Positions 9,304 to 56,048 of a DNA stretch of 64,000 bases are shown here, in pieces (the stretch's first letter is position 1; the number at the start of each line of letters is the position of its first letter). The stretch is taken from NCBI GenBank assembly GCA_963422735.1, contig OY730476.1:704001-768000 (forward strand), read 5' to 3'. Under the pieces are notes generated by a model. The model was not told the DNA's origin, did no database searches, and worked only from the letters and a program-made list of their open reading frames with translations. The translations under genes and the position numbers were made by a program. The DNA comes from Candidatus Latescibacterota bacterium. Its GTDB lineage: Bacteria; Latescibacterota; UBA2968; UBA8231.

Positions 9304-10746
9304 TTAAAGTCGATCCGCCTGCGCTTAGACAAGCCTTTGACCGGGCCGTACGACCGGCTTTTTCGCCGCCCCGGTCCCGAAGTCGCTGCACTGGCAGCGG
9401 GCGAAACGATGGCGATCATCCGCGGCACGCGGCTGCTGAAAGCCATGCCGTTATGGGAAAGCACGGCCGCGTGTTATTACGCCAAGGGCAAGGCGGGCAC
9501 CGGATGGTCGCCGGAAGATTTTAGGGACGCAGAGCAAGCCGAGCACTGGGCAGAGAAAGGGCTGGTGAACTCGCTGGCCGTGCCCATAGGCTACTTCAAG
9601 CTGCCCAATGCCGCTTGGGTCAGCGCGCTGGCGGCCGAACTGACGCCGTGGACGGCCCAACCTGTCGAAGCATGGCGGGCGGGGATTGAGCGGGACATTT
9701 GGCTGACGGTGCTGAGGGTGTATCGCTGTGCGTCCGTCCAACCGAAATTCTTGCGTCAAGGAATGGGCCTCCAGCGCGTCAGGCCCTTTGAGGTTGAGCA
9801 ATTGCAGCCGGTCATTTCAGAAAGTGAACTCAAGCGGCGAATGGAACAGATACAAGAAGCCGTAGAGCGGCATGCTCGTGGCGGCACTCGTGCAGATGCA
9901 CACTACGATGCCCAGGCCCTCGCCGCGGAGACCGGCTACACTGCCGACCAACTAAAGGGCTGGATTGACCAACTGCGGCGCAAGCAGCAGCTCATCCTAT
10001 ACGGCCCGCCCGGCACTGGCAAGACGTACTTGGCCGAGCGCTTGGCGCGCTATCTGGTGGCTGGCGGCGGTTTTAGCGAACTGGTCCAATTCCACGCCTC
10101 GTACGCGTATGAGGATTTCGTCCAGGGGATTCGGCCCCAGGTGGTAGAGGGCGCACTGCACTACGAATTGACTGCCGGGTGCTTTCTGCGGTTTTGCGAC
10201 AAGGCGCGCCAAGCCGGAGAAAAGCCCTGTGTGCTGATCATCGACGAAATAAACCGCGCAAACCTCGCGCGCGTTTTCGGCGAGCTAATGTACCTGTTGG
10301 AATACCGCCATCGCCCGATCGCGCTGGCCGGTGGCGGCGAAGAGTTTTCGATTCCCGCCAACGTCTATCTCGTCGGCACGATGAACACGGCCGACCGCTC
10401 GATCTCTTTAGTTGACCAAGCCATGCGGCGGCGATTCAGCTTTGTCCGCCTGCGCCCCAACTACCAGCTCCTGGCAAATTATCTCGCGAACAGGAGCTTA
10501 TCCTCGGAGAAGTTGGTCGCGTTACTAAAAGAAGTAAATCAATCCATTGGAGACGAGGACTGCGAGTTGGGCATTTCTTTTTTCATGGTCGCCGATATCG
10601 CCACGGCGCTGGCGCATATTTGGCAAGGCGAGGTCGAGCCGTATCTGGAGGAAGTGTTTTTCGATCGCCCGGACCAGATGGCGCGCTTTCGCTGGCCCAA
10701 GATGGCCGGGCGTTTGCCGGGTTGGGCGTGCGACGCTACGAGTTGA
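9295..10746 (+). CDS. mcrB: McrB-like AAA+ GTPase with atypical N-terminal domain
   Basis: GPPGTGKT, VQFHASYAYEDFVQG, IDEINRAN, MNTADRS and AMRRRF. Confidence 0.9.
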   Translation: MAQLKSIRLRLDKPLTGPYDRLFRRPGPEVAALAAGETMAIIRGTRLLKAMPLWESTAACYYAKGKAGTGWSPEDFRDAEQAEHWAEKGLVNSLAVPIGYFKLPNAAWVSALAAELTPWTAQPVEAWRAGIERDIWLTVLRVYRCASVQPKFLRQGMGLQRVRPFEVEQLQPVISESELKRRMEQIQEAVERHARGGTRADAHYDAQALAAETGYTADQLKGWIDQLRRKQQLILYGPPGTGKTYLAERLARYLVAGGGFSELVQFHASYAYEDFVQGIRPQVVEGALHYELTAGCFLRFCDKARQAGEKPCVLIIDEINRANLARVFGELMYLLEYRHRPIALAGGGEEFSIPANVYLVGTMNTADRSISLVDQAMRRRFSFVRLRPNYQLLANYLANRSLSSEKLVALLKEVNQSIGDEDCELGISFFMVADIATALAHIWQGEVEPYLEEVFFDRPDQMARFRWPKMAGRLPGWACDATS

Positions 10747-11888
10747 TCGAAGAGGAAGTGGCTGCGATTCCGGCCGCCGAGCTTGCGGTCGAACAGGTCC
10801 TGCACCTGCATGCCCAATACGCAAAAGAGTTGGAGTTCGGCTTCCCCAGCCCGCTCAATGGCCAGTGTTATCAGCTCAGGTCGCGGGGCTATGTCGGCGT
10901 GGTGCCATTGGGCGCGGATGCCGCCTTAGAAATCAATCCCAAAATACGTTGCTCACTGCTCATGCCCATGCTGGAGTACGCCTATCAGTTGCCCAAGATT
11001 AGCGGGTACAAGGCCCCAGCCACTATGGGGGATATCTACGAGTTTTGGGCCGAGGTACTCGCGCGCAAGGTCCTGCAACGGGTGCGGCGCGGGCTGTTTT
11101 GGGATTACCAAACCCGCGAAGGCCCCAGTCGGTGGGTGCGGGGGCGCATGTACCCCGAGCGCAGCAATCTGGGCGTTCACCCCTACTGTCGCTTTGCAGA
11201 GCACACGCCAGACATCATCGACAATCGCATCTTGGCCAACGCGCTGTACGGCCTGAGGTGCTTTGCCTTTCGCCGCGAAAGCACTCGGCAGATGGTCGGT
11301 CGAGCTTGGTGGGTGCTGAGCGAGCTAAATTACCGCCACATTCGCCCCGCAGATTGCCTCGGTGTAGCGTACCACAGGCTAAACGAGGACTACCAACCCA
11401 TGCATGCCCTGTGTTATCCCTTGCTCCAACAGCGAAGTCCGGCTTGGGGGCTGGGGGCCAAGGAAGGGCCGGCGTACCTGCTGCACATGCCGACCTTATT
11501 CGAACGGTTTTGCACGGCGTTCATCGACCACAAGCTAAATCACAGAGTCGAGCTAAAAGCCCAGTATCACACGCGACTAAAGGGAACGGAGCGGCTTTCT
11601 TTTCGCTTGGATATGGCCCTGTTTTCAGCGGCAACTGGGCAGCCGCTGGCAGTAGTTGATGCCAAGTACAAGGTCGGCGGTCCCTCGGAAAACGATGTGC
11701 AGCAGGTGGTTGCCTATGCGGTGCAGCTAGGTACGCGCCGCGCCTTTTTGCTCTATCCGAGCAGCGATATGGACGAGCAGTTTGAGGTCGGTTTAGTAAC
11801 GGTACAAGCACTCGGGTACGATTTTGAAGCCGAGGATCTAGAAAGAGCGGGCCAGCGCGTGATCCGCAAAATAGAAAATGCTATATAA
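10728..11888 (+). CDS. mcrC: McrC-like PD-(D/E)xK nuclease subunit
   Basis: YVGVV..LEINPK, MPTLFERF, LDMAL..VVDAKYK and DVQQVVAYA; GTG start overlaps mcrB. Confidence 0.88.
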   Translation: MRRYELIEEEVAAIPAAELAVEQVLHLHAQYAKELEFGFPSPLNGQCYQLRSRGYVGVVPLGADAALEINPKIRCSLLMPMLEYAYQLPKISGYKAPATMGDIYEFWAEVLARKVLQRVRRGLFWDYQTREGPSRWVRGRMYPERSNLGVHPYCRFAEHTPDIIDNRILANALYGLRCFAFRRESTRQMVGRAWWVLSELNYRHIRPADCLGVAYHRLNEDYQPMHALCYPLLQQRSPAWGLGAKEGPAYLLHMPTLFERFCTAFIDHKLNHRVELKAQYHTRLKGTERLSFRLDMALFSAATGQPLAVVDAKYKVGGPSENDVQQVVAYAVQLGTRRAFLLYPSSDMDEQFEVGLVTVQALGYDFEAEDLERAGQRVIRKIENAI

Positions 11889-11905
11889 AAATTAATATGT
11901 AAATA
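11878..11905 (+). repeat. dif-like site A: ATGCTATATAA-AAATTA-ATATGTAAATA
   Basis: 11-6-11 layout; right arm resembles the XerD arm TTATGTAAACT; mcrC stop TAA lies in the left arm; 20 bp identical to site B. Confidence 0.65.
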
Positions 11906-27620: not shown

Positions 27621-28049
27621 TCAGAAATTCAAGTTGGCCAAAAGCGCGGTCCAGGGCAGGGAGGCGACTTTGCGGTACAGATCGCTGTCGCTGGTCACGG
27701 CTTGGCAGCGGAGATGGGCACCTAAGGCAATGAAGCCGGCGGCGTACATGCTGATGGAATGCTCAAAGGCGATTTGAGTGGCTTTGCGGGTAATTTCGGG
27801 ATTGTAGGGCACGATATCCAAGTGCATGTACTCCAAGCTGGCCAAGGCGTCGTCGATATGGGTCCGATCGAATTGTCGGCTTTCCTTGAGGACATGGGCT
27901 AGCTCGTATATAGACTGGTCAAGCACGGTTAGCTCGACCCTTTCCGCTAGCTGCTCTTGGCGGAGTCCAAGGGCCTTGTGGGTATCCACATCGTGCGCTG
28001 GAGAAAACCACCTCAACATAACGGAGGTATCTAGCGCGTAGCGAATCAC
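27621..28049 (-). CDS. PIN-domain (VapC-like) toxin
   Basis: LDTSV..W, YEL..VL and VTSD..L; GTG start overlaps the antitoxin stop. Confidence 0.8.
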   Translation of the reverse strand: MIRYALDTSVMLRWFSPAHDVDTHKALGLRQEQLAERVELTVLDQSIYELAHVLKESRQFDRTHIDDALASLEYMHLDIVPYNPEITRKATQIAFEHSISMYAAGFIALGAHLRCQAVTSDSDLYRKVASLPWTALLANLNF

Positions 28050-28303
28050 TGCGCTTGCCGTTCCGCACGCAGTATCTTGAGAGGATCCCAGGGTAGTGCC
28101 TTTTTGCGCAGACTGTCTTGGAGGGTCATTCCGTGTTCGATAGCTGCCTGTTTCCGCTGGTACTCGTATGTTGCTTCCCTTTGTTGGCAGTACGCCATAA
28201 AGGCCAATCGAAGGAGTTTGCTGCGGCTTACACCCTCCTGCTGTGCAACTTGATCGATGCGTTCGAGCAGATCGTCCGGCAGCATGATATTTACGCGCGC
28301 CAT
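28046..28303 (-). CDS. Ribbon-helix-helix (CopG/VapB-like) antitoxin
   Basis: RVNIMLPDDLLERID..A..GVSRSKLLR. Confidence 0.8.
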   Translation of the reverse strand: MARVNIMLPDDLLERIDQVAQQEGVSRSKLLRLAFMAYCQQREATYEYQRKQAAIEHGMTLQDSLRKKALPWDPLKILRAERQAQ

Positions 28304-28461
28304 AAGCCTCTTTCCTTGCACCGCCTACGGCGGCGAGAAGGATATTATCGCCTAGCAAGCGGGCGTAAAGCTGCCAAGTTAGCTTTGGACCAACGGGCTG
28401 TCAAGGCGGCCCTCTTGCCTTAGTTTTGGCCGGTCTTTAATGTTACAATTGGGATTAGAGC

Positions 28462-29412
28462 ATGAAAAATCACCTAAAGATATTGTCGGGTTCGAGCAAT
28501 CCAGAACTGGCCCAAGAAATATGCGATTACTTGGCCATCACGCCCGCTCGTCGCCAGATTGTCCGGGAGCCCAACGACAATATAAAGGTTAAAATTGAGG
28601 AGAACGTGCGCGAAGACGACGTCTTCATCATCCAGACGTCAGCATCCCCGGTCAATCACCACTTCATTGAACTGCTGTTGCTAATCGACGCGCTTAGGTA
28701 CGCATCGTCGCGCCGGATTACGGCCGTGCTACCTTATTATCCTTATGTGCGCTCCGACAAAAAGGACGAGCCCCGCATTTCTATTAGCGCCCGCCTCGTC
28801 GCCGACCTGCTCCAAATAGCTGGGGCCGACAGGATCTTGACGATCACCTTGCACAGCCCACAAATCGTGGCGTTCTCGCGGATTCCGGTTGACCAACTGT
28901 GGGCTACGAGCCTACTGTGCAATTTCATGCAGATGAAAGACCTCAGCAACGCCGTAGTCGTGTCGCCCGACGTGGGAAGTGCCGATGAAGCCAGCGCGTA
29001 TGCGCGTCGGCTCGGCTTGCCGCTGGCCATTATGGACAAACGCCGCCACGCGGACGACGAAAAGGCCGAAATCAAAAATATGATCGGCGAAGTCGAAGGC
29101 CGCGACGCCTTGCTCTTCGACGACGAGGTACTGACAGGGGGGTCCATGATAGAGTCGATACGGGTCCTCAAAGAAAGGGGCGCGCACCGAATATTGGCCG
29201 GTTGTACACACGGCGTTTTTTCCGGGCGCGCCCTAGAGAGGATTGATGCCTCCTCGGTGGAATCGTTCGCCACCACGAATACCATTCCCTTGCCCGCGGG
29301 CAAGCCGAGGCGCAAAATCGCCGTATTGAGCGTCGCCCGATTGTTGGGGGATGCGATCAAAGCCATTCACCACGGTGAATCAGTGAGCCGCTTGATTGAG
29401 TGGGAGGGCTAG
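28462..29412 (+). CDS. prs: Ribose-phosphate pyrophosphokinase
   Basis: PYYPYVRSDKK, VVSPDVG, DKRR and DDEVLTGGS. Confidence 0.92.
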   Translation: MKNHLKILSGSSNPELAQEICDYLAITPARRQIVREPNDNIKVKIEENVREDDVFIIQTSASPVNHHFIELLLLIDALRYASSRRITAVLPYYPYVRSDKKDEPRISISARLVADLLQIAGADRILTITLHSPQIVAFSRIPVDQLWATSLLCNFMQMKDLSNAVVVSPDVGSADEASAYARRLGLPLAIMDKRRHADDEKAEIKNMIGEVEGRDALLFDDEVLTGGSMIESIRVLKERGAHRILAGCTHGVFSGRALERIDASSVESFATTNTIPLPAGKPRRKIAVLSVARLLGDAIKAIHHGESVSRLIEWEG

Positions 29413-29415
29413 GTG

Positions 29416-29577
29416 ATGCCAAGTAGATTGAGTATTTTCTCTGAGTTATGGGATTTTATGAAGGTCCGCAAAAAGTGGTGGTTGGGGCCGATATTTGTCA
29501 CTTTGATCCTGTTAGGGCTGTTAATTGTCACAACTCAAGGGTCGGCGGTAGCTCCCTTTATTTACGCGCTGTTTTAA
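29416..29577 (+). CDS. DUF5989/SxtK-like small membrane protein (53 aa)
   Basis: Hand-translated MPSRLSIFSELWDFMKVRKKWWLGPIFVTLILLGLLIVTTQGSAVAPFIYALF. Confidence 0.85.
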   Translation: MPSRLSIFSELWDFMKVRKKWWLGPIFVTLILLGLLIVTTQGSAVAPFIYALF

Positions 29578-29603
29578 AACTTATAAAAATTAATATGTAA
29601 AAT
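29576..29603 (+). repeat. dif-like site B: AAAACTTATAA-AAATTA-ATATGTAAAAT
   Basis: Fills the whole gap between the DUF5989 stop and the apt ATG; 20 bp identical to site A. Confidence 0.65.
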
Positions 29604-30114
29604 GAATATAAAAGAACTCATCCGCGAAATCCCCAATTTCCCGCAAGACGGCGTCTCATACAAAGACATCACGCCGCTGCTCAAAAGCCCCGCTGGTTTA
29701 TCCGTCGCGGTCCAAACCATGCTTGCCCCCTTTGCGGACGCCGGAGTGGACCTAGTCGTGGGCATAGAGGCCCGTGGATTTGTGTTCGCGACGCCCATAG
29801 CACTCGAATTGGGATGTGGTTTTGTGCCAGTGCGCAAACCGGGCAAGCTGCCGGCGGCCACGCTGCGCCGCGACTACGCGCTCGAATACGGCGAGACATC
29901 CTTGGAAATACACACCGATGCTATCGCACCGAGGCAAAAGGTATTGGTCGTGGATGACGTTTTGGCCACCGGCGGGACCTTGGTGGCAACGTGTCAAGTG
30001 CTTGAAAAACTAGGGGCGGTCGTCGAGGGCATCAGCGTTTTGGCCGAGTTGAGCTTTCTGTCGGGCCGAGACTTGTTGCGCGGGTACAAATTGGAAAGTG
30101 CTATCGTCTATTAA
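29602..30114 (+). CDS. apt: Adenine phosphoribosyltransferase
   Basis: KDITPLL, EARGF, RKPGKLP and VDDVLATGGT. Confidence 0.95.
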   Translation: MNIKELIREIPNFPQDGVSYKDITPLLKSPAGLSVAVQTMLAPFADAGVDLVVGIEARGFVFATPIALELGCGFVPVRKPGKLPAATLRRDYALEYGETSLEIHTDAIAPRQKVLVVDDVLATGGTLVATCQVLEKLGAVVEGISVLAELSFLSGRDLLRGYKLESAIVY

Positions 30115-30827: not shown

Positions 30828-31754
30828 TTGATGGGGAGTACGGATCTCAAGGTTTTCGCCGGGCGGAGCAATTCCGCACTGGCTGAGGGCATTTACCAAT
30901 CGCTGGCCATCGAGCCGGGGCGCATTGAGTTCATCGACTTTAGCAATGAGAATATAAAGGTAAAGATCTGTGAAAACGTGCGCGGTCGCGATGTATTCTT
31001 TATTCAAACCTCGTGTCCGCCCGTCAGTTCCTACTTGATGGAGCTGCTCATAGCTCTCGACGCCCTAAAATACGCCTCGGCTGGCCGCATCACCGCGGTC
31101 TTGCCGTACTATCCGTATGCTATGGCCGACAGCAAGGACGAGCCGAGGATTTCCGTGGCGGGCCGCTTGGTGGCCGATCTGATCGCCGAAGCCGGAGCGG
31201 ACCGGATTCTCACCATGACCTTACACAGCCCGCAGACTATGGGCTTTAGCCGGATTCTAGTGGACCAACTGAGCGGCGTCCCGGCGATATGCGCCTATTA
31301 CGCCGACCTCGACCGAGACAACTTGGTCGCGGCCGCTCCAGACATCAGCCGCGCCAAGGTCACCGAGACCTATGCCCAGCGGTTGGGGTTGCCCCTCGTC
31401 GTCGTTGATCAGGGTGCCGGGAAAAACAGAGTTATTGGCGACGTAGCCGACCGGGATGTCGTATTCTTCGACGACGCGATCATTACCGGCACTTCCATTC
31501 TCAAAGGAGCCGCCGCCGTCAAGGAGTGCGGGGCACGCAAAATCTACGCTGGTTGCGTCCACGGCACCCTAACCAAGGAGACGATAGCCCGGCTGGATCA
31601 ATCCAGCCTCCAAGCTCTCGCCATTACCGATACGATTCCCCTGTCGGCGGACGCCCGCACCTCCATGATGCAGGTGTGCTCCGTGGCCCCTCTCTTTGCC
31701 AACGCCATCCGCGCTATCCACGAAGAAACATCCATTAGCGCACTATTCAACTGA
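30828..31754 (+). CDS. prs: Second, divergent ribose-phosphate pyrophosphokinase paralog
   Basis: Prs fold motifs present, but YAMADSKD and a shortened loop lacking KRR. Confidence 0.85.
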   Translation: MMGSTDLKVFAGRSNSALAEGIYQSLAIEPGRIEFIDFSNENIKVKICENVRGRDVFFIQTSCPPVSSYLMELLIALDALKYASAGRITAVLPYYPYAMADSKDEPRISVAGRLVADLIAEAGADRILTMTLHSPQTMGFSRILVDQLSGVPAICAYYADLDRDNLVAAAPDISRAKVTETYAQRLGLPLVVVDQGAGKNRVIGDVADRDVVFFDDAIITGTSILKGAAAVKECGARKIYAGCVHGTLTKETIARLDQSSLQALAITDTIPLSADARTSMMQVCSVAPLFANAIRAIHEETSISALFN

Positions 31755-33410: not shown

Positions 33411-34344
33411 ACTGACTATCAAGGATCTACTAGCCACCTACGGGCAGCAACTGAAGCTGAAGCTCATCGCCGGCACCAAGGGGCTACAGCGGACTATTAA
33501 CAACAGCGACATCCATCGCCCCGGCTTGGCTCTGACGGGCTTCGTCGAGCTGTTTACCTTGGATCAAGTGCAGATATTGGGCAATACCGAAGTGGAGTAC
33601 CTACGCAGCTTGTCCCTAGACCGACGGCGGCAGGCTCTCAAAATCATATATCAATTCGATATTCCATGCGTGGTCTTGACCAGTCGGGGGCGCGTGTACT
33701 CCGAGTTGCGGCAGCTAGCCGATGAGTGCGCGGTTCCGTTGCTGAAGTCCGAATTCAACACAGCCGAGTTTACCCATCTCATCCGCTTTTACCTCGACGA
33801 GGTGTTTGCGCCCCAAGTGTCCGTACATGGGACGCTGGTCGACGTCTCTGGAGTAGGGCTGCTCTTTCGCGGCCGCAGCGGCATTGGCAAAAGCGAGGTC
33901 GCCTTGGATTTGGTCGAGCGCGGGCATCGGCTGGTAGCCGACGATATAGTCATCATCAATCGCAAGCCCCAAGGTATTTTGGTGGGGCGTAGCTCGGAGA
34001 TGCTCCAAGACCAGATCGAAATTCGCGGCATCGGCATCCTAGACGTAAAGAAGATGTTTGGCGCGTGGGGGACTCGGCGGCAGAAGCGGGTGGAGGTATT
34101 GGTCAACCTCGTCGATTGGGATGAAAAATATGCCTACGAACGCCTCGGCCTCGAAGACAATAAGGTGGTAATCCTCGGTGTCGAGGTGCCCGAGGTCTTC
34201 ATCCCTTTGTTTCCCGGCAAAAATATCACGGTACTCGCCGAGACCATAGCGATAGATTATCTCTTGCGCTTGGACGGGGAGTACGCGGCGCAGGCGTTTA
34301 GCGAGCGGCTCCGCGAGCGGATTAAGGCGGGCAGGAAACCATGA
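33403..34344 (+). CDS. hprK: HPr kinase/phosphorylase
   Basis: HRPGLALTG, GRSGIGKSE, GHRLVADD and EIRGIGI. Confidence 0.93.
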   Translation: MSELTIKDLLATYGQQLKLKLIAGTKGLQRTINNSDIHRPGLALTGFVELFTLDQVQILGNTEVEYLRSLSLDRRRQALKIIYQFDIPCVVLTSRGRVYSELRQLADECAVPLLKSEFNTAEFTHLIRFYLDEVFAPQVSVHGTLVDVSGVGLLFRGRSGIGKSEVALDLVERGHRLVADDIVIINRKPQGILVGRSSEMLQDQIEIRGIGILDVKKMFGAWGTRRQKRVEVLVNLVDWDEKYAYERLGLEDNKVVILGVEVPEVFIPLFPGKNITVLAETIAIDYLLRLDGEYAAQAFSERLRERIKAGRKP

Positions 34345-35150
34345 TGACGCTCGGCGTGGCAGGCCATGCCCGCGAGGTAGCCGTCCATCGGGATGCCTTG
34401 CGGGGCTGCCGCGATATCCAGCTCGTACACCAAGCCGACTGCGCCGCGGTTTTGGAGCAGAAAATAGATGGCCTAGTGCTGTTGCACGTGGACGATAAAT
34501 CGCATTGGATCGGCGTGGCCATAGCGTCTGGTCTGCCCGTTATGGCTACCCATCCCGTACAGGATCCGTTTGCAAATAGCCATCCCAATGTGTGCGTGCT
34601 GTCCTTGGGGAGGCATACGCACTTTTGCACGGCTCTGGCCGCCCGACAGGGCATAGCGCATTATTCCTTGGAGCTTTCTTTTGATTCGGCTTCATTCGAT
34701 CCGATTGACCGCGCGACGATCTGCAACCAAGCAGCTTTGGACGTATGCGACTTGCTGCTGAGCACTTGGGGGCCGGTAGATGTGCTGTACAGTAGGATGT
34801 GCAACTTCTTTCATCCCGGTCGCATGGAGGACGTGTCGGTCGCGTTGCTAAGGATGCGCAACGGCGTCGAAGGCTCGGTTGCGCTCCTCGACTTTCCGGC
34901 TGTAGCCCCGGCTTTGCGGACCCGCGCGTATGCACAGGGCGAAATATTCGATACGTCTTGGCCTTGGGCATGGGAAGTGGACGATCTAGCGGTGTACTAT
35001 CGCAATTTCATCGCCTGTATCCAAGGGCGTACCCAGCCGCTGTTGGGTTTGGGACAGGTGGCCGAAAGCTATAGTCTTTTGGAATGGATGCGTATGTCGG
35101 CGAGACAAGATGCGGTTTTAAGCCGCAGACAAGTAAACAAGCGTTTATGA
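34341..35150 (+). CDS. Divergent Gfo/Idh/MocA-like oxidoreductase
   Basis: Weak EDVSVALLRMRNGVEG C-terminal pattern; NAD-binding and EKP motifs eroded. Confidence 0.45.
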   Translation: MMTLGVAGHAREVAVHRDALRGCRDIQLVHQADCAAVLEQKIDGLVLLHVDDKSHWIGVAIASGLPVMATHPVQDPFANSHPNVCVLSLGRHTHFCTALAARQGIAHYSLELSFDSASFDPIDRATICNQAALDVCDLLLSTWGPVDVLYSRMCNFFHPGRMEDVSVALLRMRNGVEGSVALLDFPAVAPALRTRAYAQGEIFDTSWPWAWEVDDLAVYYRNFIACIQGRTQPLLGLGQVAESYSLLEWMRMSARQDAVLSRRQVNKRL

Positions 35151-35154
35151 ATGA

Positions 35155-35182
35155 ATGTCTTATAAAATTTTTTATGTAAATC
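35155..35182 (+). repeat. dif-like site C: ATGTCTTATAA-AATTTT-TTATGTAAATC
   Basis: Right arm matches 9/11 of the B. subtilis XerD arm TTATGTAAACT; left arm 10/11 identical to sites D and E. Confidence 0.75.
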
Positions 35183-35207
35183 AAAAATAAAAATCAGCAT
35201 ATATATA

Positions 35208-35732
35208 ATGAATGAACCATCCACGCCACCCACATACTTCGCTCTTGCATTAGCAAGCTTCTTATTAGCAATCGTGTTGCTGTTCAACTTGCTCAGCCCT
35301 ATGGCCATGCAGGTTACCAAGGAGCAGTTCGCTCAGATAAGAGAGGCCGATCTCATCGAGTATCTGATCGTGCAACCCCGGGGATTTACTTGGCAGCTCA
35401 AAAGGGCTGTGCGCGTCCAAGGGACCAACGGCGCGACGATGGCGGAGCGTATCGCGCTAGCTGAGCCCGACCCAGCCGTGGCCGAAGATTGGCGACAAAA
35501 GGGAGGAGCGGTGCGCCAAGAGCAAGATACCTCTTGGGGGGGGGGTGCAGTCTTCATCGCCTTGTTGCTCAGCGTGGGGGGATGGCACATCTGGTCCCAA
35601 ATACGGCTGGATCTCAAAGGGGGAGGGGGGCCACGCCGCCGCTTGCGCGACTTGGAAACCGCGCTCAAACAAGGCAAGATTACCCAAGCCGAATTCCGGC
35701 AGCAGGCCGAGCGGCTCTGGGCCGAATTGTGA
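35208..35732 (+). CDS. Two-TM membrane protein with SHOCT-like C-terminus
   Basis: Two hydrophobic helices; L..GKITQAEF tail. Confidence 0.6.
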   Translation: MNEPSTPPTYFALALASFLLAIVLLFNLLSPMAMQVTKEQFAQIREADLIEYLIVQPRGFTWQLKRAVRVQGTNGATMAERIALAEPDPAVAEDWRQKGGAVRQEQDTSWGGGAVFIALLLSVGGWHIWSQIRLDLKGGGGPRRRLRDLETALKQGKITQAEFRQQAERLWAEL

Positions 35733-35738
35733 GGATAT

Positions 35739-37481
35739 ATGGTGGGTAGCATTCGCGTTCTCGACGAAAGTCTCATTGGAAAAATCGCCGCCGGCGAGGT
35801 AGTGGAACGGCCGGCCTCGGTCGTGAAGGAGTTGGTTGAAAACTCGATCGATGCGGGTGCCGCTGAAATCCGCGTGGAAATCAAGGCCGGTGGCAAGCAG
35901 TCGATTGTCGTGACCGACGATGGATCGGGTATGAACAGGGAGGATATTGCTTTGTGCGTACACCGGCATGCCACGAGCAAGATGGCCTCGGTGGCGGACC
36001 TGTTTCGCATTCAGACGTTGGGGTTCCGCGGCGAGGCCCTAGCCAGCATTGGTGCGGTTGCCTACTTGGCGATAGAATCGCGCACACAGCAAAACGAAGC
36101 AGGGACGCGCTTGGTCGTGGAAGGGGGGATAGAGCGAGAGATGCACAGTATCGGCCGAGCGCACGGCACGACCATTATAGTAAAGAACTTGTTTTTTAAT
36201 ACGCCTGCGCGACGCAAGTTCCTCCGGTCCGTCGATGTGGAAGCCCGCCACGTGGCACAGACCATCATCCATTTATCCGCTGGCTACCCGGCCCTTGGCT
36301 TTGAACTAGCACGAGAAGATCGCCAAGTCTTGAGCTACGCCCCGGCATCTCGTCGAGAGCGGGCAGCCGAGTTGTTAGGGATTCAAGCGGCCGAATTGTT
36401 GGATCTCGCTTACGAGGAGGAAGGTCTCAAAATCGAAGGAGTCTTGGCCGGTCCCGAACACTGCGGCCGAAGCAAGGGCAAGCAGTACCTCATCGTACAG
36501 GGGCGGCCCATTTCTTCGCGACTGATGGCCAACGCCGTACAGCGGTGCTTTGAGGGGCTGCTGCCCGAAGGACATCATCCGGTATTTATGCTCTGGATCG
36601 ATATGGATCCCAAGAAAATCGACGTCAATGTCCATCCGACAAAGCGGGAGATTCGCTTGGCCAACGAAGGGCAAGTCATCGCGGCCATTGATAACAGCGT
36701 CCGGCAGAAGCTCAGGCTGCCCGATATGCAATCCTTTGTCTATGCTGCGGCCCCAATTCTGAGGCCGGACAGGATCCGCGTGGGCGAACCGGCGTCGCCG
36801 GTGTTGCACAGCCTACCCGCACCCGGCGAGCCCGAGTTAGCAGCAACCCATGATGTAGATGATCAACTTTCTCTGACTCTCGTCGCTCCGGCCGCGGCCA
36901 GAGTCGCCATAACCGAAGACGCCGCGATGTGGCAGGTCCACAACCAGTATATCCTCGTCGAGGTGGCCGATGGCTTGCTCTTTGTCGATCAGCAGGCCGC
37001 GCACGAACGCATTAACTACGATCGGGCCATGGCGCAAATGGACGGCGTGGCCGGCGAGAGTCAGCAGTTGCTCTTTCCCATACAGCTAGAAATGGGCGCA
37101 GCGGATTTTGAGGTCTTCAACCAAGTGCGGGCCGACATTGCCAAGCTGGGCTTTGTCGTGCGGGATTTTGGTACGCGGACGGTGTTGGTGGAAGCTGTCC
37201 CGGCTGAATTGGATCGCTTTGGCGAAGGCGATGTTTTCTATCAACTACTGAACGACATGCACGATGGCCAGCATTCGGGCCGGTCTTGGCGCGAAGCACT
37301 CGTCTTGGCGTACGTGCATAAAGCGAGCATCAAAAAAGGGCAGAAACTGAACGCCGAGGAAATGGCACACTTGATCGACGAATTGCTAAAGGTTGACACG
37401 CCGCACATAAGCCCGACGGACAAGCCGGTTATGACGCGGATGAAGTTGGGCGATATGGAGCGTCTGTTGCGGAAGTTCTAG
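35739..37481 (+). CDS. mutL: DNA mismatch repair protein MutL
   Basis: IAAGEVVERPASVVKELVENSIDAGA, GFRGEALASI and DVNVHPTK. Confidence 0.95.
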   Translation: MVGSIRVLDESLIGKIAAGEVVERPASVVKELVENSIDAGAAEIRVEIKAGGKQSIVVTDDGSGMNREDIALCVHRHATSKMASVADLFRIQTLGFRGEALASIGAVAYLAIESRTQQNEAGTRLVVEGGIEREMHSIGRAHGTTIIVKNLFFNTPARRKFLRSVDVEARHVAQTIIHLSAGYPALGFELAREDRQVLSYAPASRRERAAELLGIQAAELLDLAYEEEGLKIEGVLAGPEHCGRSKGKQYLIVQGRPISSRLMANAVQRCFEGLLPEGHHPVFMLWIDMDPKKIDVNVHPTKREIRLANEGQVIAAIDNSVRQKLRLPDMQSFVYAAAPILRPDRIRVGEPASPVLHSLPAPGEPELAATHDVDDQLSLTLVAPAAARVAITEDAAMWQVHNQYILVEVADGLLFVDQQAAHERINYDRAMAQMDGVAGESQQLLFPIQLEMGAADFEVFNQVRADIAKLGFVVRDFGTRTVLVEAVPAELDRFGEGDVFYQLLNDMHDGQHSGRSWREALVLAYVHKASIKKGQKLNAEEMAHLIDELLKVDTPHISPTDKPVMTRMKLGDMERLLRKF

Positions 37482-37542
37482 CCGGTTATTGGAGTTTTAG
37501 CAGGATGGTTATTAGGGTGCCGACTTGGGCAACAAGTTGTCC

Positions 37543-37571
37543 TTGACTTTTATTTTCTTGTAAGTTATACT
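37543..37571 (+). promoter_or_regulatory. Sigma70 promoter of recombinase gene (TTGACT-17-TATACT)
   Basis: Near-consensus hexamers with 17-bp spacer. Confidence 0.65.
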
Positions 37572-37626
37572 ATCTATAACAGGCATTATCGGTAGTATAA
37601 AAACCAATAGCCCCTGCGAGCATTCA

Positions 37627-38607
37627 ATGAGCGAAACACTTAATCCGGTCGTCAACAGGCTGACGCCAACTCCAGCGTTAGCATTAGCAGCGGACGATCC
37701 TTTGGAACAATTTCTCAGCGGCCAACTCAGCGAGCGCACGCGGCGTGCGTATTACGCTGATCTCCAGCATTTCTTTTTTTCTATCGGCATGGAGCTAAAT
37801 GAAGTCTCCCTCACCATCTTGCAGTCAATCACCTTTGAGCACGTGGTCGCCTTTAGAAATCAACTCGCCAGCGCAGGCTACAAACGCAGCAGCATCAACA
37901 GAAAATTGTCCAGCCTGAAGTCGTTGTTCAAGATGTTAGTCGCTTTAGGCCACATTGAGAAAAATCCCGCTGACTCCACCTTGGTACGCGGCTACAAGGT
38001 GGACGAAACACTGGCCGGCAAAGCGCTTTCTAATGAGGTGCTGAATAAGCTCCAGCAAGCTATTGCCCAAGAAAAAGACGACTTGGTCCGCACTCGGGAT
38101 GCGGCCATGTTCCATTTGCTCACTTTTGGCGGGCTGCGCCGCTCCGAAGTGGCAGGGGTCGCTTGGGAGGATATATCCTTGGAGGGCGTTTTTCACATCC
38201 TGAACCTGCCCCAAACTAAATCAGGCGTGGCTCAGGAAATCAAACTACAAAACATCGTCTTACATTATCTCGAACTATACAAACAACAACTACAAGTAGC
38301 GGGCTTGCCGACGACCGGCAAGGTCTTTATCAGCCTGTCGCGCAACCATTCTCACGGCCAGCCGCTGACTGACCAATCGGTCAATCACATCGTCAAGAAG
38401 TACGCCCTGCGCGTCGGCCTCTCCCAAAACGTCACCGCGCACATGTTCCGCCACACCTGCTGCACCTTGGCGATTGAAGGCGGAGCCAAGCCCCAGCAGG
38501 TGCAAGCCCATTTGCGTCACAAGGATCTAAAGACAACCATGCGCTACTACGAAAATCGCGAGAAGCTGCTCGATAATGCGTCTGATTATATTAGGATTAG
38601 TAGTTGA
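37627..38607 (+). CDS. Tyrosine recombinase (Xer-like size, not canonical XerC/XerD)
   Basis: SERTRRAY N-domain; GLRRSEV (R), TKSG (K), HMFRH, LRH and TTMRY catalytic set intact. Confidence 0.92.
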   Translation: MSETLNPVVNRLTPTPALALAADDPLEQFLSGQLSERTRRAYYADLQHFFFSIGMELNEVSLTILQSITFEHVVAFRNQLASAGYKRSSINRKLSSLKSLFKMLVALGHIEKNPADSTLVRGYKVDETLAGKALSNEVLNKLQQAIAQEKDDLVRTRDAAMFHLLTFGGLRRSEVAGVAWEDISLEGVFHILNLPQTKSGVAQEIKLQNIVLHYLELYKQQLQVAGLPTTGKVFISLSRNHSHGQPLTDQSVNHIVKKYALRVGLSQNVTAHMFRHTCCTLAIEGGAKPQQVQAHLRHKDLKTTMRYYENREKLLDNASDYIRISS

Positions 38608-38615
38608 TTATTTTT

Positions 38616-38643
38616 TGTTTACATATTAAATAGTATAAGACAT
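38616..38643 (-). repeat. dif-like site D: ATGTCTTATAC-TATTTA-ATATGTAAACA (candidate chromosomal dif)
   Basis: 8 bp after the recombinase stop, abuts the leuS stop, lies where gene orientation converges. Confidence 0.75.
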
Positions 38644-41573
38644 TACACCACGATATTTACAATTTTATTCGGCACCCATATAAACCGTTTTATCGCTGTC
38701 TCATCTGCTACGTATTTCTGGATGCTCTCCATGTCGAGCACCAAGGATTTTATCTCATCTTCTCCGGTGTGGACCGGCACTTCGACTTGGCCGCGCATTT
38801 TGCCATTAACCTGAATGGGCAAAACGATCGTGTCCTCGGCGGCTTTTGCTGCATCCCACTCGGGCCAGTTCCGGCGACTGACCCCTTCCGTCCCGAAACC
38901 CGCCATTTCCCATAGCTCCTCGGCAATGTGCGGAGCAAAGGGCGCGAGCAGGATCAAGAAGGGCTTAGCGATGGCCTGTGGCACCTCGTCTAAAGGAACC
39001 AACAGGTTGTTTAACTCGATCAAGGCGGCAATGGCCGTATTAAACCGAAGCCCCTCTATATCCTCGGTTACCTTTTGGATGGTTTGATGCAGCTTTCTTT
39101 CCAGCTCCGGCGCAAGCGCAGTGCTCTCCCCTATTTTCACCTGTCGATCCGCATCGACAAAGTTGCGCCAAACGCGCTGCAAGAAGCGCTGCATCCCGCG
39201 AATGCCTTCCATGCTCCACGGCGCACTCGCTTCGAGCGGCCCCATGTACATTTCGTACAGCCGCAAAGTATCCACGCCAAATTCCTCGCCAACCTCTTCG
39301 GGCGGCAGCCCGTTTTTGTAACGTTTGCCCATTTTGCCGGGAGACCGGCGCAGCGTCTTCCCCGTCCCTTTCTCAATAGGCTCTCCGTCGCGGAACTCAA
39401 CTTCGCGAATGTCGATATACACGCCGCGATCGTCCTGAAAAGCATCTGCGGTCATCATACCTTGATTGAACAGCTTCTTAAACGGCTCGGGCGTGGATAC
39501 GTGCCCTAAGTCGTAGAGGGCCTTGTGCCAAAACCGGGCGTAGAGCAAGTGCAACACGGCGTGTTCAGCGCCGCCGATGTAGAGATCAACGGGCATGAAG
39601 TAGCCCTCCTTGGCCAAGTCGCAGAAGGCTTCTTCGTTGTGTGGGTCAATAAAGCGGAGATAGTACCAGCAAGAACCGGCCCATTGGGGCATGACATTGA
39701 GTTCGCGCTGGCAGGCCACCCCGTCAATTTCCACCGTCATCCACTCCGCTCCGGCCCGGTGCAGCGGAGGCGAAACGGGGCGGGCGGGATCGTCGGAGGT
39801 CTCCGGTCTAAAATCCTCTATATCCGGCAGTGCCACCGGAGGCGCGACCGCTACGGAATATCCATCGGGATGCGTGGCCAGTGGAAAAGGTTCGCCCCAA
39901 TAGCGCTGCCGCGCGAAGGTCCAGTCGCGCAGTTTGTGGTTTACCGCAGATTGGCCGCGCCCTTGGGCGACTAGTGCAGCGACAATCTGGACTTTGGCCG
40001 CGGCCGTTGGCAATCCGTTAATGGCATACGGACTATCGCCGCTATCATCCTTCCGTGACGGAGGCGAATTGATCGCGGTTCCCTCCCCAGCATACCACTC
40101 TGTCTCGCCAGCACTGGCGAGACAGAGCACGGTCTCCTCTTCCCCGGTAACTACCTTCACAATGTCCAAGTTATAGGCAGTGGCGAAGGCGAAATCGCGC
40201 TCGTCGTGGGCCGGCACGGCCATAATCGCTCCCGAGCCGTAGTCCATACTGATGTAGTCGGCGACGAAAACGGGAATTTTTTGTCCACTGACTGGATTGC
40301 GGGCGTAGATGCCGGAGAAGATGCCCGTTTTTTCCTCGGTTTCATCTGCAGTGGAGACAGCAGCCTGAGCGACGTACTGGGCTACAGCTTCCCGAATGGG
40401 ATTCCCTCCCCCCTTCCCCTTCCACTGCTGAGGCGTCCTGTCGGGCCAAGTGCTGGGAACCAAGTAGGATTCCTCAGCAGGATCCACCAGCGGATGCTGA
40501 GGCGCAACGGCCATAAAGGTCGCCCCAAAGAGCGTATCGGGCCGGGTCGTGAACACGGGTAACTGCCCAGCGACCACATCGCTTTGCGGATCGAGGATAT
40601 CAAAGTACACTTCAGCCCCTTCGCTACGACCAATCCAGTTGCGCTGCATCCGCTTGATAGGTTCTGGCCAATCGAGCCGGAAGGGCTCGCCGTTGCGATC
40701 CTCTAGCTCGAAGTCCAAGTCCTCTAAGAGCCGCTCGGCGTAGGCTGTTATACGCATTGTCCACTGCCGCAGCGGTTTGCGATATACGGGAAAAGCGCCC
40801 CGCTCGCTGCGGCCTTCGTTGGTTACCTCCTCGTTGGCCAACACAGTGCCCAAGCCTGGGCACCAGTTGACGACGGCCTCTTGTTGGTACGCTAGCCGGT
40901 AGTTGTTTAGCACGGCTTGGTGCTCGGCCGCACTGAGTGCTGACCAGTCAGCATCAGTGCCGAGTACTTCGCGATCTGCAACCGACAATGCCCTGCCAGC
41001 CGCAAATTGGTCCTCTAAGTCGGCGATAGGCTTGGCCCGCCCTTTTATTTGCCGTCTATTGCCGTCTTCCCAGATCTCGTCTGCGTCGAAATAGCTATCG
41101 AAAAGTTGGGCAAAAATCCACTGGGTCCAGCGGTAGTACGATACCCGCGACGTGACCTGTTCGCGGGCCCAGTCAAACGACAGCCCGAGGAACTGCAATT
41201 GGCCGCGCATCGCATCAATATTTTGCTCGGTAACAGCCGCTGGATGAATGTTGTGTTCGATGGCGTATTGCTCGGCCGGCAATCCGAAACTGTCGAACCC
41301 CATCGGATGCAGGACGTTAAATCCCTGCATCCTTTTGTAGCGGCTGTAGATGTCGCTGGCGATATACCCTTTGGGATGGCCGATGTGCAACCCCGCGCCG
41401 CTTGGATAGGGAAACATATCGAGGACGTAGCACTTGGGTTTGCTGTCATCGAAACCGGGGTCTCCCGGTCCCAGCGTTTGATAAGTCTTCTCCTGATCCC
41501 AGTGGGACCGCCATTTGGCTTCGATAGTTTGGAAGTTGTAGTTGTATTGGCCTTTTTTTGATTTTGTTGACAT
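38643..41573 (-). CDS. leuS: Leucine--tRNA ligase
   Basis: LDMFPYPSGAGLHIGH, TTRPDT, GGAEHAVLHLLYARFW and KMGKR. Confidence 0.96.
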   Translation of the reverse strand: MSTKSKKGQYNYNFQTIEAKWRSHWDQEKTYQTLGPGDPGFDDSKPKCYVLDMFPYPSGAGLHIGHPKGYIASDIYSRYKRMQGFNVLHPMGFDSFGLPAEQYAIEHNIHPAAVTEQNIDAMRGQLQFLGLSFDWAREQVTSRVSYYRWTQWIFAQLFDSYFDADEIWEDGNRRQIKGRAKPIADLEDQFAAGRALSVADREVLGTDADWSALSAAEHQAVLNNYRLAYQQEAVVNWCPGLGTVLANEEVTNEGRSERGAFPVYRKPLRQWTMRITAYAERLLEDLDFELEDRNGEPFRLDWPEPIKRMQRNWIGRSEGAEVYFDILDPQSDVVAGQLPVFTTRPDTLFGATFMAVAPQHPLVDPAEESYLVPSTWPDRTPQQWKGKGGGNPIREAVAQYVAQAAVSTADETEEKTGIFSGIYARNPVSGQKIPVFVADYISMDYGSGAIMAVPAHDERDFAFATAYNLDIVKVVTGEEETVLCLASAGETEWYAGEGTAINSPPSRKDDSGDSPYAINGLPTAAAKVQIVAALVAQGRGQSAVNHKLRDWTFARQRYWGEPFPLATHPDGYSVAVAPPVALPDIEDFRPETSDDPARPVSPPLHRAGAEWMTVEIDGVACQRELNVMPQWAGSCWYYLRFIDPHNEEAFCDLAKEGYFMPVDLYIGGAEHAVLHLLYARFWHKALYDLGHVSTPEPFKKLFNQGMMTADAFQDDRGVYIDIREVEFRDGEPIEKGTGKTLRRSPGKMGKRYKNGLPPEEVGEEFGVDTLRLYEMYMGPLEASAPWSMEGIRGMQRFLQRVWRNFVDADRQVKIGESTALAPELERKLHQTIQKVTEDIEGLRFNTAIAALIELNNLLVPLDEVPQAIAKPFLILLAPFAPHIAEELWEMAGFGTEGVSRRNWPEWDAAKAAEDTIVLPIQVNGKMRGQVEVPVHTGEDEIKSLVLDMESIQKYVADETAIKRFIWVPNKIVNIVV

Positions 41574-41592
41574 AATAATCCTTATAAGACAC
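41565..41592 (-). repeat. dif-like site E: GTGTCTTATAA-GGATTA-TTATGTCAACA
   Basis: Begins right after the asnS stop; the right arm contains the leuS ATG. Confidence 0.72.
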
Positions 41593-42897
41593 TTATGGAT
41601 AGAGGCGCTGCATCATGCGCGGAAATGGAATGGTCTCGCGCACATGCTTGACGCCGCACAACCAAGCGACCACCCGCTCGATTCCCATGCCAAAGCCAGC
41701 GTGCTCTACCGAGCCATAGCGCCGCAAGTCGAGATACCAACTAAAGGCTTCTAGGGGCAACTGATGCGCGGCGATCTTGGGCTGCAAGACGGCGAGATCG
41801 TCTTCGCGTTGCCCGCCTCCGATGATTTCCCCGTATCCTTCGGGAGCCAACAGGTCCATGCACAGGGCCAAGCGGCGATCTTGGGCATCTTCCTTCATGT
41901 AGAATGCTTTGACTGCGCTGGGATAGCGGTGGACGAAAACCGGTGACTCAAACTCGGAGGCGAGGACGGTTTCATCGTCCCCACCCAGATCACTCCCCCA
42001 TGTGATGTCGTTACCAAGAGCTGTCAAGCGCTCGACAGCTTCATCGTACGTTATGTGCGGAAAGGGCCGGCTGATCCGTTCCAGCTTGGCGATGTCTCGG
42101 TCGAGGTGCTTTAGCTCTTCGCGGCGGCGGTTGAGCACGCGGTCGAGCACGTACAGGACCATGTCCTCGGCTAAGACCATAGCACCCTCTAAATCGCAAT
42201 ACGCCATTTCCGGCTCGATCATCCAGAACTCGGTCAGGTGCCGGCGAGTCTTGGACTTTTCAGCGCGGAATGTCGGCCCAAAACAATAGACCTTACCCAA
42301 GGCCATGGCGGCTGCTTCCATATAGAGCTGACCGCTCTGGGTCAAATAAGCCGTGTCGTCGAAATACGCGGTCTCAAACAGGGTCGAGGTCCCTTCACAG
42401 GCCGCAGGCGTAAAAATCGGCGCATCGACGAGAACAAAGCCGCGCACTTCCATGAAGTCGCGGCAGGCTTTGCAAATTTCGCTGCGGATCTTGAGAATGG
42501 CCCCGGGCCGCCTCGACCGCAGCCACAAGTGGCGGTGGTCGAGGAGAAAGGACACCCCGTGTTCCTTGGGGGCGATGGGGTATGGCTCGGCCTCCTGCAC
42601 GACGTCGAGGTGGCAGACCCCCACCTCATAGCCGATGGGCGCACGCGCCTCCCGCCGCACTTGGCCGCGGACTACGAGCGAAGATTCTTGGGGCAAGTGA
42701 TCGCACCGCTCGAATAACTCGGACTCGACATCCCCCTTAAAAACAACGCATTGTACCACGCCGCTGCCGTCGCGTAGCTGCAGAAAATGCAGCTTGCCGC
42801 TGGAGCGCTTGTTGTACAACCAACCGCGCAGTTTTACTTCTCGACCCTCGTAGCGGCCGATGTCAGCCACCTGAATCGACTCCATTTGCTTATTCAT
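41593..42897 (-). CDS. asnS: Asparagine--tRNA ligase
   Basis: [35 protein letters not shown] and GFGMGIER. Confidence 0.93.
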
Positions 42898-55078: not shown

Positions 55079-56029
55079 TCAACCCGGATCGCTCCCCCAT
55101 CTGTACTCCCACTCGCCGACGATGCGCTGGACGACACCGGCCTTTCCCCATACGTCGAGGTCTAATTCGCGCAAGCGGCGGTCGCGGCGGCACCACGTCA
55201 CTTGTCGTTTGGCCAAGTGACGGGTGCGCCGTTTGGTCCGCTCAACGGCCTCCTTCCAAGGGCAATGCCCTGCCAGCGCACTGCATATTTCGAGATAGCC
55301 CAACGTCCCCAAGGCACTGGCACCTGGATCGTATCCCATTTCGCGCAAGGCGCGGACTTCCTCGACCCATCCCCGCTCTATCATTTGCTCGACCCGCTGG
55401 TCGATCCGATCGTAGAGTCGACTGCGCGCCATGGTCAGGCTGATCGTTTGCGGCTGCCGCGCAAACGGCTGCCCCTTGCGCTCTCGCCATAGCTCGCTGA
55501 GGGTGCTCTTCCCACCTATGGCTACCTCCAAGGCCCGGAGGATCCGCTGCGTGTCTCCCGGCTGCAAACGCGCTTGCGCGATCGGATCCCGACAGCCCAA
55601 CTCATCGTATAGGGATGCAAGCCCTTCGCAATGCAGGCGATTTTTCAATTCAGCGCGGATCGGCGCGTATTCGGTCTCGTCCTCAAAACATCCGTCCAAT
55701 GCACTCTGCCAGTACAGGCCCGTTCCTCCAACCACTATGGGAAGGCCCCCTCTGTTCCAGATCTGCCCAATGATGTGCCTTGCAGCTCGAGCATACGCTC
55801 CCGCGCTATAGTTTTCCTCGGGACCGAGCACATCGAGCAAGTGATGGGTGCATTGGCTTTGCTGCTCAGCGGTTGGCTTGGCCGTGCCGATGTCCATGTA
55901 GCGGTAGATTTGCCGCGAGTCTGCCGAGATGATTTCCACTTTGGGCAAGTGCCGGGCCGCTTTGAGGGCTATTTCCGTTTTGCCGGTGGCCGTGGGGCCG
56001 GTGATCAGGATGAGAGGTTTGTTTAACAT
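55079..56029 (-). CDS. miaA: tRNA dimethylallyltransferase
   Basis: GPTATGKT, SADSRQIY..MDIGTAKP and GGTGLY. Confidence 0.95.
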   Translation of the reverse strand: MLNKPLILITGPTATGKTEIALKAARHLPKVEIISADSRQIYRYMDIGTAKPTAEQQSQCTHHLLDVLGPEENYSAGAYARAARHIIGQIWNRGGLPIVVGGTGLYWQSALDGCFEDETEYAPIRAELKNRLHCEGLASLYDELGCRDPIAQARLQPGDTQRILRALEVAIGGKSTLSELWRERKGQPFARQPQTISLTMARSRLYDRIDQRVEQMIERGWVEEVRALREMGYDPGASALGTLGYLEICSALAGHCPWKEAVERTKRRTRHLAKRQVTWCRRDRRLRELDLDVWGKAGVVQRIVGEWEYRWGSDPG

Positions 56030-56048
56030 ATTTTTAAATATAAATACA
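56021..56048 (-). repeat. dif-like site F: TGTATTTATAT-TTAAAA-ATATGTTAAAC
   Basis: Right arm matches 9/11 of the E. coli XerD arm TTATGTTAAAT and contains the miaA ATG; left arm more divergent. Confidence 0.55.

Follow-up and report, generated by a model that had tools for sequence, protein, structure and literature searches.

The dif consensus is a sequence of about 28 bp in which two imperfectly inverted 11-bp arms surround a centre of 6-8 bp, the XerD arm being of the TTATGTnAA type, and in E. coli FtsK activates Xer recombination at such a site asymmetrically, from the XerD side. Invertible segments of the Hin/hix type consist of inverted repeats around a recombinase gene, the enzyme being a serine invertase, and in the Tus-Ter and RTP-Ter systems opposed groups of polar sites lie around the terminus, with the gene of the binding protein beside an inner site. 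Reportedly, Karaboja et al. described in 2021 that XerD-specific, dif-like XDS sites in the B. subtilis terminus unload Smc-ScpAB. Passages in two papers mention dif-like XDS sites in the terminus of this organism and the unloading of Smc-ScpAB by XerD there (PMC11840125, PMC11894783), and parts of another paper describe, for XerS/difSL of streptococci and lactococci and for XerH/difH of Helicobacter and Campylobacter, that the Xer gene is adjacent to the dif site (PMC5357621). The present analysis deals with six dif-like sites, A to F, and with a tyrosine recombinase gene between the two innermost of them, all located in a stretch of 64,000 nucleotides from a Candidatus Latescibacterota bacterium (in the following called the window; bases 704001-768000 of a single contig of 4,953,052 bp with 59.5% GC). 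The six sites mark the replication terminus of this chromosome, and what is new here is a mirrored, recombination-active dif pair that goes along with a dedicated third Xer and with polar extra sites. Inverted dif pairs at a terminus are not described in the literature that was searched, the coverage of which excluded most subscription journals, and the top-ranked literature matches, as far as their text was available, include no paper that links Latescibacteria with Xer or dif.

The sites, and the genes that lie between the innermost of them, are the following (positions in the window):

Site A, 11878..11905, plus strand: outermost left site, ATGCTATATAA AAATTA ATATGTAAATA, overlaps the stop of a McrC-like open reading frame (ORF)
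Site B, 29576..29603, plus strand: AAAACTTATAA AAATTA ATATGTAAAAT, occupies the gap between DUF5989 and apt
Site C, 35155..35182, plus strand: inner left site with full arms, ATGTCTTATAA AATTTT TTATGTAAATC, after orf269, left edge of the invertible segment
C-D segment, 35183..38615: about 3.4 kb between the inverted sites C and D, with orf174, mutL and the recombinase gene
orf174, 35208-35732: inside the C-D segment
mutL, 35739-37481: inside the C-D segment
Xer-like tyrosine recombinase, 37627..38607, plus strand: 326 amino acids, PF02899 and PF00589, stop 8 nt before site D
Site D, 38616..38643, minus strand: inner right site, ATGTCTTATAC TATTTA ATATGTAAACA, with the recombinase gene and leuS converging on it, right edge of the invertible segment
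leuS, 38643-41573, minus strand: 976 amino acids, bracketed by the direct repeats D and E
Site E, 41565..41592, minus strand: asnS-leuS junction, GTGTCTTATAA GGATTA TTATGTCAACA
Site F, 56021..56048, minus strand: outermost right site, TGTATTTATAT TTAAAA ATATGTTAAAC, with the ATG of miaA (56029) provided by the right arm

All six sites have the dif-type structure of an 11-bp arm, a 6-bp spacer and an 11-bp arm (28 bp), with an XerD arm of the TTATGTnAA type. The left arms are weaker in A, B and F; in E the arms are full and the spacer is a different one, which retains GGAT and together with the preceding AA gives the Shine-Dalgarno-like sequence AAGGA for leuS. Site E (41592-41565) begins directly after the asnS stop (41595-41593) on the minus strand, bases 3-5 of the right arm of E are the leuS ATG (41573-41571), and the leuS TAA (38645-38643) has its final base in common with site D (38643-38616). 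D and E point in the same direction and are direct repeats with unlike spacers (TATTTA vs GGATTA). A TAA comes after the ATG in sites A to D, and on their own strand A and D have no gene downstream. An earlier note on this DNA, made from the letters of the window, had already described the junctions from site E and asnS through leuS to site D with coordinates that were all correct on recheck, and it had placed A, B, C and F correctly and given gene names that are upheld by Pfam, but it had missed the recombinase gene (37627-38607) beside D, the mirrored orientation of the sites and the position at the terminus. When the window was searched for the D/E pattern with up to 3 mismatches, 3 matches were found versus 0.00 expected from 100 shuffles. 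An A-rich run of 10-25 nt lies on the inner side of each site (e.g. 35183-35207, 38590-38615, 41540-41564) and may be an accessory or DNA-bending element; at site E it encodes the Lys-rich N-terminus of LeuRS (MSTKSKK).

The sites are confined to 44 kb of the genome (window 11878-56048), with A, B and C on the plus and D, E and F on the minus strand. A weight matrix that had been built from five of them, site A being left out, was used to scan both strands of the whole genome, and it found the six sites at 31.6-43.0 bits, among them site A at 35.1 bits in spite of its omission, with the next best match at 24.3 bits. With a looser arm pattern there were 24 matches genome-wide versus 14 for the reversed control, and five of the six window sites were recovered, site D being missed as its left arm ends in C; this looser pattern, applied to the whole genome, revealed no second canonical XerCD dif with both arms outside the window. 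There is thus not one dif site per chromosome, as would be usual for dif, but six sites, of which C and D are full inverted copies 3.4 kb apart. Their location is that of a dif, opposite the origin and at the switch of the GC skew: the cumulative GC skew has its global maximum at 730-740 kb of the genome, with a local sign change at about 38 kb of the window, where site D is found, and the genes run rightward as far as the recombinase gene and leftward from leuS on, so that they converge at site D. The dnaA gene is at 3,070,378, and 47% of the chromosome lies between it and the C/D pair; in five complete genomes of the same genus (G009, G010, G011, G022, G044) the cluster is 48-52% of the chromosome away from dnaA, as calculated from rounded genome sizes. 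GC skew and the strand bias of long ORFs are irregular at 1.4-3.0 Mb of the genome, with several local reversals that suggest past rearrangements between the origin and the right replichore. The skew by itself is for this reason insufficient, but the distance to dnaA and the convergence of the genes agree with it.

The array is conserved within the genus. The pattern WTATA-N8-TATGTNAA has matches in 30 of 31 genus genomes, the reversed control giving 0-1 per genome, and in all 24 genus genomes that have both signs in one cluster, every plus-strand site comes before every minus-strand site, which means that the XerD-like arms always point inward. The sites occupy the same junctions throughout the genus, at the same distances (about 2.9 kb for D-E, 3.5 kb for C-D, 14.5 kb for E-F and 23 kb for A-C). 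The site at the DUF5989-apt junction recurs in the loci of the genus, and in some distant loci (L037, L047) a site is found near apt. The arms are kept at these junctions and the spacers vary between species, the exception being site E with its constant GGAT; conserved arms with drifting spacers are what is expected of a site to which a protein would bind with two arms. The suggestion of the earlier note that these are binding sites squeezed into gene junctions is thereby supported. Two deviations were seen at the leuS side, a site with a 7-bp spacer in one locus (L018, about 11039) and, in another (L026, 10900-12200), the absence of a recognisable site, the best score there being 12 of 22 in spite of an intact segment with intact flanks.

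Outside the genus, a dif-like site that is often canonical follows the recombinase stop in distant relatives, for example ATGCCGCATAA AATTTT TTATGTAACTT in L037 and AGAGCGCATAA AATATA ATATGTAATGT in L039, and in most distant loci with a recognisable site it is within about 20-120 nt of that stop. In at least 10 of 33 distant loci a second, inverted site is found upstream, mostly between mutL and the recombinase gene, so that the pair brackets the recombinase alone. Five complete genomes of a sister family in which the recombinase is absent have scattered matches at control level and one dif-like candidate each, which hints, though weakly, at a link between the mirrored pair and the recombinase.

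That the recombinase is a Xer-type protein of its own kind is indicated by its scores. Against the NCBIfam models it reaches 129.8 bits for XerC (cut-off 335), 120.1 for XerD (cut-off 330), 105.9 for XerA and 83.5 for XerS (cut-off 267), all far under the cut-offs, so that by sequence it is a member of none of these families; XerH is not among its NCBIfam matches, and the models of integron integrases give 38.1 and 19.2 bits (cut-offs 265 and 435). The closest solved relative is XerD of E. coli (1a0p, E 2.8e-17). Elsewhere the genome encodes a XerD (337.1 bits, above the cut-off of 329.6), a XerC-like protein (316.3 bits, under the XerC cut-off of 335.15 and over the PRK00283 cut-off of 279) and likewise one phage-type integrase. 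The terminus recombinase is therefore the third Xer-type protein and not a sole Xer that replaces XerC and XerD. In a large protein collection it has 324 homologues at E <= 0.001, the best 120 of which are 60-100% identical, and in 18 aligned homologues the catalytic R-K-H-R-H-Y is invariant and the C-terminal 60 residues nearly so. It is encoded at 60 loci in species-representative genomes (57-92% identity), which are labelled Candidatus Latescibacterota or, in the case of some metagenome-assembled genomes, Gemmatimonadota/-etes, Gemmatimonadaceae, Gemmatimonas or Magnetovibrio. Within the genus, it is present in 22 of 24 other genomes, the remaining two, in which no match was obtained, being 58% and 92% complete, and no match was obtained at E <= 1e-20 in 16 genomes from other families of the class. 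Judged from these comparisons, the recombinase is a conserved, phylum-specific third Xer-like protein. Its neighbours orf174 and orf269 gave nothing usable in Pfam and NCBIfam, the only match of orf174 being GvpG at 22 bits, under the cut-off of that model.

Like in the XerS and XerH modules, as far as these are covered by the consulted parts of the source, the recombinase gene of the window lies directly beside a dif-like site, here at the terminus. Unlike in these modules, the site is a classical 11-6-11 dif with arms of the XerC and the XerD type, it is duplicated in mirror image around the gene with more oriented sites outside, and the genome has a true XerD and a XerC-like protein in addition; the distance to XerS itself is also evident from the 83.5 bits at a cut-off of 267.

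Evidence that C and D recombine comes from the orientation of the segment between them. In the window and 14 further genus-level loci, i.e. 15 altogether, the arrangement is orf269-[C]-orf174-mutL-recombinase-[D]-leuS, and in 10 genus-level loci it is leuS-[site]-orf174-mutL-recombinase-[site]-orf269; both are present among the records of complete chromosomes. A maximum-likelihood tree with 26 rows was calculated from flanking proteins only (LeuRS, PNPase, HprK and RsgA), three loci (L024, L031, L032) with contigs of insufficient length being omitted. At least 5 switches of orientation are needed on this tree, and the well-supported branches by themselves force 5; with shuffled orientation labels the mean is 7.0 changes, and in 20-30 of the 500 shuffles the number is as low as 5. 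Unlike orientations are found in sisters, namely L021/L023 and L028/L030 (support 100) and L015 versus L019/L038 (support 99). In the differing pairs that were compared, the spacer and the inner arm move with the segment and the flanking sequence stays, which places the breakpoints within the 11-bp outer arm or at its border. These comparisons require at least 5 inversions of the C-D segment in the genus, the breakpoints of which lie within the sites. The spacers of C and D are identical in 6 of 23 genomes, compared with 38 of 506 cross-genome comparisons, and in four genomes both sites have an outer arm with the AAGTC variant, which suggests that C and D may exchange sequence; as related genomes are not independent, the spacer identity is supporting evidence only. 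At the distant locus L037, it is just the recombinase gene whose direction is reversed with respect to the two flanks.

The locus has what characterizes an invertible segment, i.e. inverted repeats, a recombinase and both orientations. Like in Hin/hix systems, the segment with the recombinase gene is enclosed by inverted repeats and is found in nature in both orientations. Unlike in these systems, the enzyme is a tyrosine recombinase of the Xer type, dif sites at the terminus form the repeats, there is no sign of a switched promoter, and the contigs of four sequencing runs contain no mixture of orientations.

It is probable, at roughly 70%, that the locus is a terminus array of Xer binding sites which consists of a mirrored, recombination-active dif pair and of outer, predicted XDS-like sites. 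A, B and C would belong to the left and D, E and F to the right replichore, all of them turned so that the XerC-like arm faces the origin and the XerD-like arm the terminus. The mirror-image complete dif pair C/D around orf174, mutL and the third Xer-like recombinase would serve as the chromosome's dimer-resolution locus, and the neighbouring recombinase would act there, either by itself or jointly with XerC and XerD. Genes for ScpB and for a FtsK that has a gamma domain are present in the genome. The mirror arrangement may have its reason in that a translocase that comes from either arm would meet a complete site on its XerD-type side. As C and D are inverted, recombination between them would occasionally flip the 3.4-kb segment, and as the segment is co-directional with one flanking operon in either orientation, both forms would be viable. 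A, B, E and F are predicted to be binding sites without recombination, similar to XDS, that would act on machines bound to the terminus, be it Smc-ScpAB, FtsK or replication forks. At site E, the different spacer would protect the essential leuS from excision. This gene would merely happen to be located between D and E, as the compact genome has put the sites into gene junctions, and leuS and miaA would have adopted the ATG of the XerD-like arm as their start codon.

Like the XDS sites, to the extent that the passages on B. subtilis describe them, the sites A, B, E and F are extra dif-like sequences clustered in the terminus, and ScpB is present. Unlike those sites as described there, the array of the window spans 44 kb, is strictly mirrored, lies in gene junctions and has a dedicated third recombinase.

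Several points weigh against such an interpretation. The putative likeness of the outer sites to XDS is drawn from secondary passages. There are three Xer-type proteins in the genome, any of which may use the sites. The spacers of C and D differ in the window (AATTTT vs TATTTA), which should hinder a complete two-step exchange, and the inversions could in principle have come about through RecA-dependent exchange between short repeats. In Logan contigs of four runs from two studies (X16, X17, X19, X20), no alternative joints at C/D were found for 34000-40000, and all contigs that bridge C and D have the orientation of the window; contigs drop rare variants, but flipping is accordingly no high-frequency switch in the sampled populations. 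Five distant complete genomes have 1-2 sites each with the looser pattern, and the six-site array is thus specific for the genus; in three of these genomes the second site is 1.1-12 kb from the first and forms a convergent pair with it, and in one the second match is 400 kb off and looks like chance. Finally, the orientation of a site is always that of the neighbouring gene, so that the terminus polarity is inseparable from the polarity of transcription, and on sequence alone the sites could have a role linked to transcription.

A polymorphism was seen in the spacer between mutL and the recombinase gene (37482-37626), where two of the runs (X17 and X19) have an insertion at 37536/37537. The form with the insert is a 396-nt contig in which 30 nt match on each side and about 336 other letters are in between, and its depth is 89.8 versus 349.7 for the insert-free form in X17, and 12.9 versus 30.4 in X19. 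It is in this spacer that distant relatives have their upstream dif-like site.

A more far-reaching version would see here an undescribed design of a terminus, in which the third Xer resides in a self-inverting mirror dif pair and the outer sites are one-way gates, built of complexes between recombinase and DNA, that trap forks or unload SMC; a motor from either chromosome arm, be it FtsK, Smc-ScpAB or a replication fork, would meet the XerD-type face of a complete site. This is held to be doubtful. Since flipping would carry mutL along, the context in which this gene is expressed may vary with the orientation.

The genes at the outer sites, as assigned with Pfam, have to be considered for the first of the alternatives:

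McrC-like ORF (PF10117), 10620-11888: stop inside site A
DUF5989 (PF19451), 29416-29577: before site B
apt, 29602-30114: adjoins site B
miaA, 55079-56029: ATG within site F

The sites could be operators or leaderless promoters of leuS, miaA, apt and the orf174-mutL-recombinase operon, through which a recombinase or some other protein would control these genes, their location at the terminus being incidental. B, C, E and F overlap start codons or directly precede them, the TTATAA of the left arm is 7-8 nt before the ATG of leuS and of miaA like the -10 box of a leaderless gene, and the constant agreement between site and gene orientation would be explained at once. Leaderless promoters, which the earlier note had considered, nevertheless fail for A and D with no downstream gene to serve, and they fail also because the motif is confined to the 44 kb of the array; for its absence from the rest of the 4.95 Mb, a general promoter or leaderless motif was rejected. 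Site E, directly after asnS, provides leuS with an ordinary AAGGA ribosome-binding sequence, which suggests co-transcription instead, and neither the recurrent inversion with breakpoints in the sites nor the canonical dif-like site that is found phylum-wide at the 3' end of the recombinase gene is explained by regulation. Such an exclusively regulatory function is therefore considered unlikely.

About as weak is the case for a fork trap, in which the two opposed groups of polar sites would act like Ter and the Xer-family protein would be a one-way barrier for replication. Like in Tus-Ter and RTP-Ter, opposed polar groups lie around the terminus (in 24 of 24 genus genomes), and a candidate gene of the binding protein adjoins the inner site; the 3+3 mirrored sites are nested at about 2, 5-7 and 19-25 kb from the centre. 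Neither Tus nor RTP (PF05472, PF02334) turned up in the genome, whose completeness is 95%, and the role of a terminator protein would thus be vacant. Unlike in these systems, though, the sites have the sequence of a classical dif and not of Ter, the distant relatives have just 1-2 sites, the co-orientation with genes explains the geometry equally well, and we know of no tyrosine recombinase that arrests forks. A fork trap is accordingly regarded as quite improbable.

The exact bracketing of leuS by the direct repeats D and E had led the earlier note to propose a dif module or an integron-like cassette that carries this gene, and in such a scenario leuS and other genes would have been moved by directly repeated sites. 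Genes bracketed by Xer-type sites are indeed known from plasmid dif modules of Acinetobacter (pdif), from IMEX and from integron cassettes, to which the D/E direct repeats bear a likeness. Unlike in these elements, the gene content and the gene order are fixed here, the genes are core housekeeping genes that are inherited vertically, the locus is chromosomal at the terminus, and the polarity of the sites is mirrored and not tandem. The comparison of synteny that the earlier note had called for was done by tblastn with ten window proteins, and the gene order at the site boundaries turned out to be fixed: from the closest to the most distant loci it is apt ... rsgA-hprK-(orf269)-(orf174)-mutL-recombinase, followed by the convergent leuS-asnS-pnp, and the order mutL-recombinase-site-leuS-asnS-pnp is constant across Candidatus Latescibacterota. 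leuS adjoins the recombinase gene in 53 of 60 loci, 6 others are cut by contig ends, and a true absence is found in one (L037). Also the inheritance of LeuRS, the other comparison that had been proposed, speaks for a resident gene, as the identity of LeuRS (61-89%) has a Spearman coefficient of 0.87 with the identity of PNPase and likewise with that of the recombinase (46 loci), and a divergence that parallels that of the neighbours is the pattern of vertical descent. With presence and position of the bracketed gene not being variable, leuS is no mobile cassette, and as regards an integron, the recombinase is no integron integrase, its score being 38 bits with a cut-off of 265, and the sites are dif-like and not attC-like. 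In addition, all six sites are at constant junctions and distances in the genus. The remark of the same note that the differing spacers of D and E should disfavour excision is reasonable.

The only case that may appear to favour mobility is L037 (genome G047; 9440-10060), where exactly leuS is absent from the interval between asnS and the recombinase gene, with just one site, ATGCCGTATAA TATATT TTACGTAAATA, remaining 3' of the asnS stop. The only LeuRS match of this genome, an 844-amino-acid open frame that is 38-47% identical to the LeuRS of the window, is at another locus (L073-L075), and no dif-like sites were found nearby. A movement of leuS as a cassette was rejected for this locus, since the other LeuRS without dif-like sites in its vicinity indicates replacement plus loss and not transposition. 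It looks as if the resident leuS was lost after a second LeuRS had become available, i.e. that an essential synthetase was displaced by a divergent copy, and the loss was possibly due to recombination between two direct sites, which would fit a single ancient E x D deletion and is no proof of mobility. This loss is one event in 54 informative loci, and a mobile cassette is altogether a very remote explanation.

Chance AT-rich junction sequences or an assembly artefact, as might be thought of since the sites are AT-rich, lie in short gaps between genes and belong to a genome of 59.5% GC, can practically be dismissed with 0.00 matches expected in shuffles, with sites in 30 of 31 genus genomes against 0-1 control matches per genome, and with contigs of four independent runs that are identical to the window sequence.

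An array of Xer binding sites with a recombination-active inner pair is of interest because the organisation of the terminus, in terms of dimer resolution, SMC unloading and fork fusion, is largely unknown outside of a few model phyla. The locus is a compact terminus module that can be read from the sequence and is conserved across an uncultured phylum, and it gives direct natural evidence that two inverted chromosomal dif-type sites recombine. With the 28-bp sites and the three recombinases there are concrete substrates for tests in another host. It is also a caution, as a gene that is exactly bracketed by recombination sites need not be a cassette.

Some further observations concern the neighbouring genes. 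Between leuS and pnp, asnS is absent in L034, L035 and L065, and in L034 and L035 a dif-like site lies directly between the two genes. Two paralogues of ribose-phosphate pyrophosphokinase (prs; 28462-29412 and 30828-31754) flank DUF5989, apt and a TPR gene, and an ORF with a PIN domain (27621-28358, minus strand) is on the strand opposite to all of its neighbours on the left replichore. At 9295-11888, a McrB-like AAA ATPase (AAA_5) and the McrC-like gene make up a pair of the restriction type, the end of which is in site A, and the conserved A-C distance in the genus suggests that this pair is a stable resident.

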